Part shown: positions 20,983 through 23,051 of the stretch, piece by piece
Position numbering within the stretch: the stretch's first letter is position 1
How the letters are laid out: the number at the start of each line of letters is the position of its first letter
Assembly: GCF_016026235.1 (NCBI RefSeq)
Contig: NZ_CP065613.1
From: Escherichia coli
GTDB taxonomy: Bacteria > Pseudomonadota > Gammaproteobacteria > Enterobacterales > Enterobacteriaceae
Length of the DNA: 64,000 bases
Reading direction: 5' to 3' (one strand)
Notes under the pieces: model-generated
Told to the model about the DNA's origin: nothing
The model's input: only the letters and a program-made list of their open reading frames with translations
Databases searched by the model: none
Program-made: the position numbers and the translations under genes

Positions 20983-22764
20983 GTGAGCGATATTGTTTAC
21001 CTGAGAATAATCGGTGAGAAGCAGGGCGATATTTCTTCAGGCTGTGGGACGTATGCGTCGGTTGGTAATCGCTGGCAGGTTGGCCATGAAGATGAAATTT
21101 TTGCCTTTGCACTCACCAACGCCATTACCAGTACTGGTAATGGCGTTAATCTACAGGGGCTACAATTTTGCAAACTCATTGATAAAAGCTCACCGCTACT
21201 GTCTAATGCCATCAATCAGAATGAGCGGTTATTTATTGAAATCGATTTGTATCGTATAAATAAAAGCGGGCGCTGGGAACGGTATTATTATATTCAGCTA
21301 AGAAATGCTTCATTAACTGCTATTCATGTAAACATTTCTGACAATAATCTTCCTACCGAATGTGTAACTGTCGATTATCACTACATATTATGTAAACATC
21401 TAATAGCCAATACGGAATTTGACTGGTTGGCCTTTCCTGCTGGCTATAATAGCTTATTTATTCCGCCTAAAAGCCCACCTGCCAGTAATCTTAAGCCTGA
21501 ACCTCTACCAGTTGTTAACCTTCCACTCTCTTCACCAGCGGTTAACCCGGTCTATGCCAAATCCTGTCTGAAGGAGAAGGGATGTACAGATGCTGGAACG
21601 GCAGAAGAACCCGCTGAAAACTTCGGTCAAGTAGCGATTTTTGCTCAGCCAGTGGTTGATGACTGCTGTGGATACCACCATCCCGAGGCTAACGATGTCG
21701 GGCAACCCGCAGAAGCTCAAACCATGCTACTGTTTCCGGGTAGTGTGTTGGCGGCTCAAATATGGGGAAAATGGTCGCTCAGTGGCATACTCAGTGCAAC
21801 CCGCGGCTCTTACATCGGTGCGTTGGCATCTGCTTTGTATATTCCCTCTGCGGGCGAGGGCAGTGCTCGCGTGCTCGGACGTGATGAGTTCTGGTATGAG
21901 GAAGAACTGCGGCAGAAAGCACTAGCAGGCAGTACCGCCACCACCCGGGTACGTTTTTTCTGGGGAACTGATATTCACGGCAAGCCTCAGGTGTATGGTG
22001 TTCATACGGGTGAAGGTACGCCGTATGAAAACGTCCGCGTGGCGAACATGCAGTGGAACGAGCAGACGCAGCGTTATGAATTTACCCCCGCTCACGATGT
22101 CGATGGCCCCCTGATTACCTGGACGCCGGAAAATCCGGAACATGGGAATGTTCCGGGCCATACCGGTAACGACAGGCCGCCGCTGGATCAGCCCACCATT
22201 CTGGTGACGCCGATTCCGGACGGTACAGATACCTATACCACGCCGCCATTCCCGGTTCCTGATCCGAAAGAATTCAACGATTATATTCTGGTTTTTCCGG
22301 CGGGATCCGGTATTAAGCCCATCTATGTTTACCTGAAGGAGGATCCGCGAAAGCTGCCTGGTGTTGTAACAGGGCGCGGCGTCCCGCTTTCATCAGGAAC
22401 TCGCTGGCTGGATATGTCGGTATCCAATAACGGCAACGGCGCGCCAATCCCGGCGCATATTGCTGATAAATTGCGCGGACGGGAGTTTAAAACCTTTGAT
22501 GAGTTTCGCGAGGCGCTGTGGCTGGAGGTGAGTCAGGATCCGGAGTTGATAGCGCAGTTTTCAAGTGGTAACCAAACACGTATAAAACAAGGATTAACCG
22601 CAAAAGCACCTATTGACGGTTGGCATTATGGCCCTAAAGAAATAGTTAAAAAATTCCAGATACATCATCGTGTTGCAATTGAATATGGCGGCAGCGTATA
22701 CGATATTGATAATTTACGAATTGTTACCCCCAGACTACACGATGAGATTCACTACAGGAGATAA
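20983..22764 (+). CDS. Hcp (T6SS tube protein) fused to a C-terminal colicin E9-type HNH DNase domain (Hcp-ET class effector)
   Basis: N-terminal ~165 aa Hcp-like ([39 protein letters not shown]); Pro-rich linker; C-terminal ~130 aa alignable with colicin E9 DNase ([37 protein letters not shown] ... [30 protein letters not shown]); GTG start in an AT-rich leader. Confidence 0.85.
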   Translation: [593 protein letters not shown]

Positions 22765-22766
22765 AT

Positions 22767-23051
22767 ATGTTTAAAGAAAAGCTCCAGGATTATACCGAGG
22801 ATGAATTTCTTAATTTTTTAGGCGGATTGAGATCATCTATGAAAGATGGAAAATCCTTAAAAGGTAAGGAGCTAGAAATGTACTGGGATTCATTAGTAGA
22901 TCATTTTATTGAAATTACACAGCATCCGTCAGGGAGCGATCTAATTTTCTACCCTAAAAGTCAAGGAGATGATAAGCCTGAAAACATCCTGAAAATTGTC
23001 AAAGAATGGCGGCGTTCACAGGGGTTACCCTTGTTTAAAGACTCTAAATAA
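22767..23051 (+). CDS. Colicin-DNase immunity protein (Im9-like), cognate to the Hcp-DNase
   Basis: 94 aa; DYTEDEFLNFL ... ITQHPSGSDLIFYP ... resembles Im9 (DYTEAEFL ... TEHPSGSDLIYYP); starts 3 nt after the toxin stop. Confidence 0.85.
   Translation: MFKEKLQDYTEDEFLNFLGGLRSSMKDGKSLKGKELEMYWDSLVDHFIEITQHPSGSDLIFYPKSQGDDKPENILKIVKEWRRSQGLPLFKDSK

Follow-up and report, generated by a model that had tools for sequence, protein, structure and literature searches.

A 64,000-nt stretch of Escherichia coli DNA (contig NZ_CP065613.1, assembly GCF_016026235.1; hereafter the window, meaning the whole of that stretch) carries between aroP and pdhR a toxin-immunity locus that we identify, with near certainty, as usp on its island PAIusp. 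PAIusp is a horizontally acquired island of about 4.1 kb found in E. coli mostly of phylogroup B2, and its toxin Usp is a specialised form of Hcp, the tube protein of type VI secretion systems (T6SS). Our preferred reading, to which we give a probability of roughly 80%, is that the main function of Usp is that of an antibacterial DNase delivered by a T6SS. The locus has already been characterised and is not new; only minor substitutions depart from the published description.

A specialised Hcp ending in a colicin-type DNase

The toxin gene usp (20983-22764, + strand, GTG start) encodes a protein of 593 aa, of which 576 residues (97%) are identical to Usp of strain UTI89 in an alignment without gaps. 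UTI89 has the same gene order at the same aroP-pdhR site. More generally, PAIusp of uropathogenic E. coli (UPEC; e.g., UTI89, Z42, TA211) shares with the window the site, the 593-aa toxin, the three immunity genes imu1-3 (= orfU1-3) downstream of usp, two toxin remnants and the catalytic HNH residues. The island of UTI89 differs by 17 substitutions in Usp and by the L-to-P change that Imu3 displays in the window. In RefSeq the gene is called tssD in the closest complete genome, FDAARGOS_943, and in the T6SS literature the same protein is known as Hcp-ET3-4. According to reviews, Ma et al. (2017, Virulence 8:1189) identified Hcp-ET3-4 as UTI89_C0121, described it as an Hcp domain joined to a "Pyocin S3" domain and a colicin DNase and followed by three immunity copies, took the Pyocin_S region for a further toxin domain, and reported an antibacterial effect that the three immunity genes downstream neutralise. 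From its description and position, we infer that UTI89_C0121 is the current tag UTI89_RS00600.

An initial annotation, made from the sequence alone, had reported within 20983-23051 a 593-aa protein and, 3 nt downstream, a second gene, and had quoted peptides from the first; both open reading frames (ORFs) exist in these places (20983-22764, 593 aa; 22767-23051, 94 aa) and the peptides are present. It had described the larger product as an Hcp N-domain, a Pro-rich linker and a complete C-terminal colicin-type HNH DNase, which profile searches bear out. Residues 1-146 (20983-21420, +) score 124.7 bits against the Hcp/TssD model TIGR03344 (curated cut-off 58.9) and match Pfam T6SS_HCP (PF05638) with an E value of 1.5e-12, and Hcp chains from the PDB match the N-terminus at 2.4e-15 and weaker. 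The linker that follows (residues 147-308; 21421-21906, +), in which the Pfam scan gave no domain match, is first Pro-rich (20% proline over residues 147-200), then rich in cysteine and acidic residues, and finally hydrophobic and rich in Gly, Ala and Ser. At the other end of the protein, residues 460-591 (22360-22755, +) match the colicin/pyocin DNase family PF21431 (Col-Pyo_DNase) over the full length of the model (1-124 of 124; E 5.9e-42). PDB matches to this domain include the DNases of colicins E9, E7 and E2 and of pyocins AP41 and S2 (E ~1e-27 to 1e-31), and pyocin S8 is also among its relatives.

Between the linker and the nuclease lies a Pyocin_S domain of about 140 aa that the initial annotation had missed. 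It occupies residues 309-450 (21907-22332, +), directly upstream of the DNase, and matches PF06958 over its full length (1-139 of 139; E 3.2e-40); PDB entry 3MFB (ECA1669) matches this region at 1e-17, and klebicin G matches residues 373-591 at 2e-39. Work on pyocin G attributed to PF06958 the inner-membrane translocation (IMT) of nuclease bacteriocins and depicted Usp as a T6SS nuclease effector with this domain (PMC9040868). By analogy with those bacteriocins, we prefer to see in the "Pyocin S3 toxin domain" of Hcp-ET3-4 an IMT domain rather than a second toxin. The order Pyocin_S then colicin-type DNase also recurs in other T6SS effectors, namely VPA1263, a MIX effector of the Vibrio parahaemolyticus T6SS1, and ECA1669; these differ from Usp in their delivery module, which is MIX or of another type in place of Hcp. 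NCBIfam NF047924, which models VPA1263-type T6SS DNase effectors, aligns with residues 199-590 (E 1.6e-63), its 215 bits being far short of the 900-bit cut-off. The scores of the Hcp, Pyocin_S and DNase domains, and those of Imu1 given below, are far beyond chance.

A specialised Hcp (Hcp-ET) is recognised by a C-terminal extension of more than 60 aa that carries a toxin domain and by an adjoining immunity gene. In Usp, the N-terminal Hcp domain is followed by an extension of 447 aa that terminates in the Col-Pyo DNase, and imu1 is the neighbouring gene; the Hcp-ET architecture proposed in the initial annotation thus stands. Within this family, Hcp-ET1 (STEC004 / O104:H4) shares with Usp the Hcp N-domain, a His-Me finger DNase and an adjoining immunity gene, and its T6SS2-dependent delivery has been demonstrated. 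It differs by its generic HNH domain (PF01844) and its link to T6SS2, and no Pyocin_S domain is listed for it. Hcp-ET1 was therefore ruled out as the closest match, since Usp matches the family member with Pyocin_S and colicin-DNase domains, Hcp-ET3-4.

The catalytic motif of the nuclease is complete. Alignment to UTI89 Usp places its residues at H561, H562, N577, H586 and H590 (22663-22752, +), and the HH...N...H...H pattern is retained when the DNase domain is aligned to that of colicin E9 (ColE9). Much of the experimental literature uses the numbering of a historical 346-aa "Usp" ORF, which starts at M248 of the 593-aa protein and is thus offset by 247; H561, H562, N577 and H586 correspond to H314, H315, N330 and H339 in that numbering, and all four are present in the window protein. 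Zaw et al. reported that alanine at H314/H315, N330 or H339 abolishes the nuclease activity and toxicity of Usp, which is a non-specific DNase that needs its HNH motif and is lethal when usp is expressed alone (PMC3685522).

The insert was delimited by blastn of the E. coli K-12 locus against the window. With the K-12 homology ending at 20616 and picking up again at 24714, it spans 20617-24713 (+), about 4.1 kb, and takes the place of 139 bp that K-12 has between aroP and pdhR. Its GC content of 0.36-0.47 compares with ~0.52 in the flanks. The neighbours are aroP (19032-20405, -) and pdhR, which starts at ~24.9 kb, in agreement with the aroP-pdhR intergenic region being the integration site of PAIusp in all sequences examined by others (PMC7142922). 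Of 5426 complete E. coli genomes, 1048, or about one in five, contain 80% or more of the 4.5 kb between aroP and pdhR, with a chromosomal location in every carrier, and nearly all the remaining genomes match the edges of this interval only.

The aroP-proximal intergenic DNA (20406-20616) is common to K-12 (91%) and holds the divergent aroP promoter P3, which has been described as the sole usp promoter, with a wild-type -10 hexamer TGGTAT, activation by TyrR and repression by H-NS; this control was established in UPEC and S. bongori (PMC7142922). The same hexamer is present in the window at 20544-20549 (+ strand), and the AT-rich 5' leader of usp follows (20617-20982, +; 66-75% A+T). A fuzzy pattern search for TyrR boxes yielded nothing better than hits with 3-4 mismatches, too poor to be interpreted, and TyrR control rests on the literature. 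Within the island, promoter-like and terminator-like sites occur at chance level (14 found vs 13.5 expected, and 3 found vs 3.9 expected, respectively), and the single match of an Rfam scan, PhrS, reaches 19.6 bits where the gathering score is 37 (E 0.096); we regard it as noise.

Immunity genes, toxin remnants and variation between strains

The first immunity gene, imu1 (orfU1; 22767-23051, +; 94 aa), lies 3 nt after the usp stop codon. Its product matches Pfam Colicin_Pyocin (PF01320) over the full length of the model (1-82 of 82; E 8.1e-30), and its PDB matches are ImAP41, Im7 and Im9, with E values from 2.5e-20 to 1e-16; the earlier description of an Im9-like gene is therefore sound. Imu1 is 100% identical to its UTI89 counterpart. 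As a description of the island, the initial annotation was right about the toxin and imu1 and incomplete beyond them: its coordinates span one of three immunity modules, about half of the ~4.1 kb, and it overlooked the two further modules as well as the identity with usp.

These two modules sit at 23208-24448, and each consists of an orphan 3' end of usp followed by an immunity gene. In the first, the usp remnant (23208-23458, +) carries D in place of H561 and loses its reading frame after DIDNLR through a deletion of 1 nt; it is followed by an intact imu2 (orfU2; 23459-23749, +; 96 aa), annotated in RefSeq as "bacteriocin immunity protein" and 64% identical to Imu1. In the second, the remnant (23905-24151, +) carries Y in place of H561 and a TTA to TAA nonsense change after ...YYIDN, beyond which the remaining HNH codons stay in frame; it is followed by imu3 (orfU3; 24152-24448, +), whose longest ORF encodes 98 aa, or 96 aa from the ATG at 24158 that RefSeq takes as the start. 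Both remnants are copies of the last ~80 codons of usp, and DNA alignment places the start of the homology at ...LWLEVSQ..., codon ~513 (W513; nt 22519). These lesions have inactivated both orphan toxin remnants, and the immunity genes behind them are intact.

Imu1, Imu2 and Imu3 are mutually 57-66% identical, with the last 24 residues and the helix-III motif almost invariant. Relative to UTI89, Imu2 differs by one residue, and Imu3 by one residue and by an N-terminus 2 residues longer in the ORF as called. All three are acidic proteins of the Im family with the conserved helix-III motif D-x-I-(Y/F)-Y-P, from which the window Imu3 deviates: Imu1 and Imu2 read SDLIFYP or SDLIYYP, and Imu3 reads GDPIFYP. 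At the same place, UTI89, e1-39, Ecol_745 and Z1323HEC0475 have GDLIFYP. In colicin immunity proteins this motif contacts the DNase, and the L-to-P change may weaken this copy.

The orphan toxin-CT/immunity arrays of Rhs, CdiA and the Vibrio cholerae T6SS auxiliary clusters are built in a similar way: downstream of the full-length toxin come intact immunity genes, each preceded by a shortened toxin 3' end whose homology starts at a fixed junction within the toxin. Orphan immunity genes of T6SS loci are also treated in the review literature. Those arrays differ in that they swap a whole, unrelated toxin domain, whereas the usp island varies only the last ~80 codons of one DNase family and both of its remnants are pseudogenised.

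The distribution of differences among alleles was examined by comparing the window protein with that of three other usp+ strains (UTI89, Ecol_745, Z1323HEC0475), which delimits a hypervariable segment at residues 517-560 (22531-22662, +). Residues 527-552 within it align to ColE9 DNase residues 72-96; we take residues 72-98 of that DNase to be the immunity-protein exosite. UTI89 Usp is of the same allele type as the window protein, its 17 differences being scattered and only 1 of them falling in the segment. By comparison, 15 of 33 differences fall there in Ecol_745, and 21 of 37 in Z1323HEC0475.

The order of the modules varies as well. In Z1323HEC0475, an Imu3-type gene (92% identical) comes after the lead toxin; the first orphan position holds a window-type C-terminus, intact through the HNH motif, with an Imu1-type gene (93%), and a frameshifted remnant with an Imu2-type gene (98%) comes next. 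Ecol_745 (NZ_CP015074.2, locus 566-4729) has four immunity genes, imu2 being duplicated, and its lead toxin, a third exosite variant, is paired with a 97%-identical Imu1. In a rough count, the Ecol_745 type forms the largest class of usp+ genomes. Its 15 differences from the window toxin in residues 517-560, beside an Imu1 so little changed, raise the question of how the specificity between toxin and immunity protein is set. A lead module of the window type, at 95% identity or more, is present in ~426 of ~1,050 usp+ genomes, a rough figure; since one and the same module can stand at several places of an array, counts of other lead-module types are confounded. Others have sorted usp into uspI and uspII and PAIusp into four subtypes, with each usp type tied to a particular orfU (PMC3685522), and the variation that we see agrees with this.

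Exosite-focused differences and permuted modules fit a polymorphic interbacterial toxin. Variation clustered at the exosite and accompanied by a diverged immunity array is what selection of bacterium against bacterium, rather than selection on a host-directed toxin, would be expected to leave. Since modules are permuted between strains, the imu2 and imu3 modules most likely protect against Usp alleles of other E. coli. A more tentative extension, possible though in our judgement doubtful, is that the island is a working device for switching toxins and hoarding immunity. Recombination at the LWLEVSQ junction (codon ~513) would swap the last ~80 codons, comprising the exosite and the HNH motif, together with the next immunity gene between lead and orphan positions, giving at least three exosite alleles that would act as compatibility groups among B2 E. 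coli.

Proposed mode of action and competing explanations

Under T6SS delivery, the usp operon would be transcribed from the pre-existing divergent aroP promoter P3, with TyrR and aromatic amino acids activating and H-NS repressing across the AT-rich leader; what is seen of this control in the window is the conservation of the -10 hexamer. Usp would be made together with Imu1, which would bind the DNase exosite and keep the producer safe, a step that has been shown for Usp and OrfU1. The Hcp domain would then enter the tube of a T6SS encoded elsewhere in the genome (in UTI89, presumably that of T6SS-1 at tRNA-Asp), and the toxin would be expelled into a neighbouring bacterium. There, by analogy with pyocin G and colicins, the Pyocin_S/IMT domain may help the DNase to cross the target's inner membrane, probably with FtsH. 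FtsH-dependent crossing via PF06958 has been shown for pyocin G and colicins only, and the authors of that work call the case of T6SS effectors unknown (PMC9040868). Once inside, the HNH DNase would degrade the target chromosome non-specifically. The downstream modules are toxin 3' ends that have been displaced and are dead but retain live immunity genes.

This mechanism places the secretion machinery outside the window. The initial annotation had noted that the 64-kb window holds no T6SS core genes, and we agree: positions 1-32807 are collinear with the annotated genome of FDAARGOS_943 (99.8-99.9% identity), where the only T6SS-named gene is usp itself ("tssD") and the others are housekeeping genes, and the remainder, 32.8-64 kb, is a prophage. 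UTI89 has a complete T6SS-1 (tssA-M, two hcp genes, vgrG, PAAR) at tRNA-Asp, ~117 kb from PAIusp, and FDAARGOS_943 has a T6SS-1 at the same tRNA-Asp site (NZ_CP065615.1, 2,654,000-2,689,000). For other members of the Hcp-ET family, T6SS-dependent delivery has been demonstrated, according to reviews.

Several points weigh against T6SS delivery as the main function. An extension of ~47 kDa would have to be accommodated in or on the Hcp tube. Compared with the two Hcps encoded in the T6SS-1 cluster of FDAARGOS_943, the Hcp domain of Usp shows an identity of only 28% and 39%, and in that cluster tssC is split by the insertion sequence (IS) IS21 and one vgrG is truncated by IS600. Finally, one laboratory reports that Usp is genotoxic to mammalian cells, that it forms no tight Usp-Imu complex and that Imu3 protects via DNA binding.

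The state of the FDAARGOS_943 cluster also bears on whether the island of the present strain is a non-functional relic, its toxin no longer delivered and its immunity alone kept, which we regard as rather unlikely. The IS-disrupted tssC and vgrG of so close a relative point that way, as do the two dead orphan remnants and the L-to-P change in the helix-III motif of Imu3. On the other hand, the usp frame is open over its whole length and retains all its catalytic residues, and imu1 is identical to the UTI89 gene. Moreover, the window and FDAARGOS_943 diverge at 32.8 kb, so the state of the T6SS cannot be carried over from one to the other, and a second T6SS may exist. The FDAARGOS_943 cluster also has an IS1 among DUF3304 immunity-like genes, and its usp and imu1-3 are intact; because they persist beside an IS-disrupted cluster, the usp island can outlive T6SS-1.

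The report of genotoxicity belongs to a different account, in which Usp is chiefly an anti-host genotoxin that causes mammalian DNA damage and apoptosis and contributes to urovirulence, and the Imu proteins, above all Imu3, shield the producer by coating its DNA. Published work describes genotoxicity to human cell lines and an association with isolates from pyelonephritis, prostatitis and bacteraemia, and usp is induced by urea and temperature (PMC7142922). Imu3 was also found to bind DNA and RNA and to protect DNA from colicin E7, and no tight Usp-Imu3 complex was seen in that study. This finding conflicts with the work of another laboratory, which purified a tight Usp/OrfU1 complex and measured a lowered nuclease activity in it (PMC3685522). 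The allele differences, moreover, gather where Usp aligns with the immunity exosite of colicins, the island carries a diverged immunity array, and Imu1-3 are all acidic members of the Im family that share its conserved helix-III motif; in addition, a 2015 review stated that no secretion route of Usp to host cells was known. We consider a chiefly anti-host role unlikely, and note that genotoxic and antibacterial roles are not mutually exclusive.

It is highly improbable that Usp is a diffusible bacteriocin, released by lysis and imported through a receptor, with its Hcp-like domain a remnant or a receptor-binding module: its C-terminal two-thirds (Pyocin_S, DNase and Im) are indeed organised like klebicin G, S-type pyocins and E colicins, and an activity of that kind was proposed in the early literature, but colicin-like release is rejected because the island lacks a lysis gene, all ORFs between aroP and pdhR being accounted for, and the protein matches no receptor or translocation domain of colicins or pyocins, its N-terminus being a bona fide Hcp above the curated cut-off. 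Besides, the promoter is controlled by TyrR and not by the SOS response (PMC7142922), and a survey of bacteriocins left out usp as a non-bacteriocin. Receptor and translocation domains, a lysis gene and SOS control, which mark nuclease-bacteriocin systems, are thus all lacking at the usp locus. The homology with colicins E9, E7 and E2, pyocins S2, AP41 and S8 and klebicin G extends over the DNase and Im proteins, the Pyocin_S domain upstream of the DNase, and the HNH and helix-III motifs. These bacteriocins differ in having receptor-binding and Tol/TonB-box regions, which Hcp replaces in Usp, as well as a lysis gene, and colicins are carried on Col plasmids whereas usp is chromosomal and under TyrR/H-NS control. 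At the killing step Usp therefore works as colicin DNases do, without being a colicin itself.

Flanking genes, prophage and wider significance

The flanks of the island are E. coli chromosome: to its left the gene order is nadC-ampD-ampE-(GH43 gene and GPH symporter gene)-aroP, and to its right pdhR-aceE-aceF-lpdA. The GH43 gene and the GPH:cation symporter gene (16529-18873, -) form an accessory pair between ampE and aroP that is missing from some other usp+ strains, where ampE directly adjoins aroP. Further to the left, an IS3-family element lies between yacG and mutT (~6,470-7,820), as placed by collinearity with the FDAARGOS_943 annotation, to which the window aligns across the element without a gap.

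To the right, a lambdoid prophage occupies ~32,808-64,000, with genes for an integrase, anti-repressors, an O-like replication protein, a large terminase, a portal protein and a head protease/major head fusion. It is mosaic, the best E. coli genome covering only 50% of it at 92% identity, and it is absent at this site from FDAARGOS_943. The prophage appears to be inserted inside yacH, which encodes a DUF3300 protein (32103-32807, -): only the 3' ~700 nt of that gene are left beside lpdA, and collinearity with the reference ends at about codon 351 of 585. The integrase (32877-33946, -) seems to be broken into two ORFs that overlap (33551-33946 and 32877-33569), and the one at 32877-33569 matches the C-terminal half of integrase profiles only; because of this split, we suggest that the integrase is frameshifted and possibly defective. 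A transposase ORF at 39993-40811 (-), which matches phrog_157 with an E value of 1e-135, lies inside the prophage, and an IS element has therefore been inserted into it.

The gene usp has been known since about 2000 and has served for ~25 years as a standard virulence marker of UPEC and extraintestinal pathogenic E. coli (ExPEC). The nuclease activity of Usp, its immunity partner, its promoter and its nature as an Hcp fusion have all been published, yet under two names, as Usp in the literature on the genotoxin and as Hcp-ET3-4 in that on T6SS effectors. A 2023 review lists "Usp" under bacteriocin DNases and "Hcp-ET3 (E. coli UTI89)" under T6SS DNases without a recognisable domain (PMC9990079). 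These two entries appear to be one and the same protein, and the two literatures appear not to be cross-linked.

If the island does act as a toxin-switching device, the 15 exosite-segment differences of Ecol_745 Usp, together with its 97%-identical Imu1, would imply either a broad cross-immunity or a specificity that comes from two or three Imu residues. Beyond this particular mechanism, the variation focused on the exosite and the permutation of modules between strains argue for an interbacterial role of Usp, and bear on the disagreement over whether it is a genotoxin or an effector.

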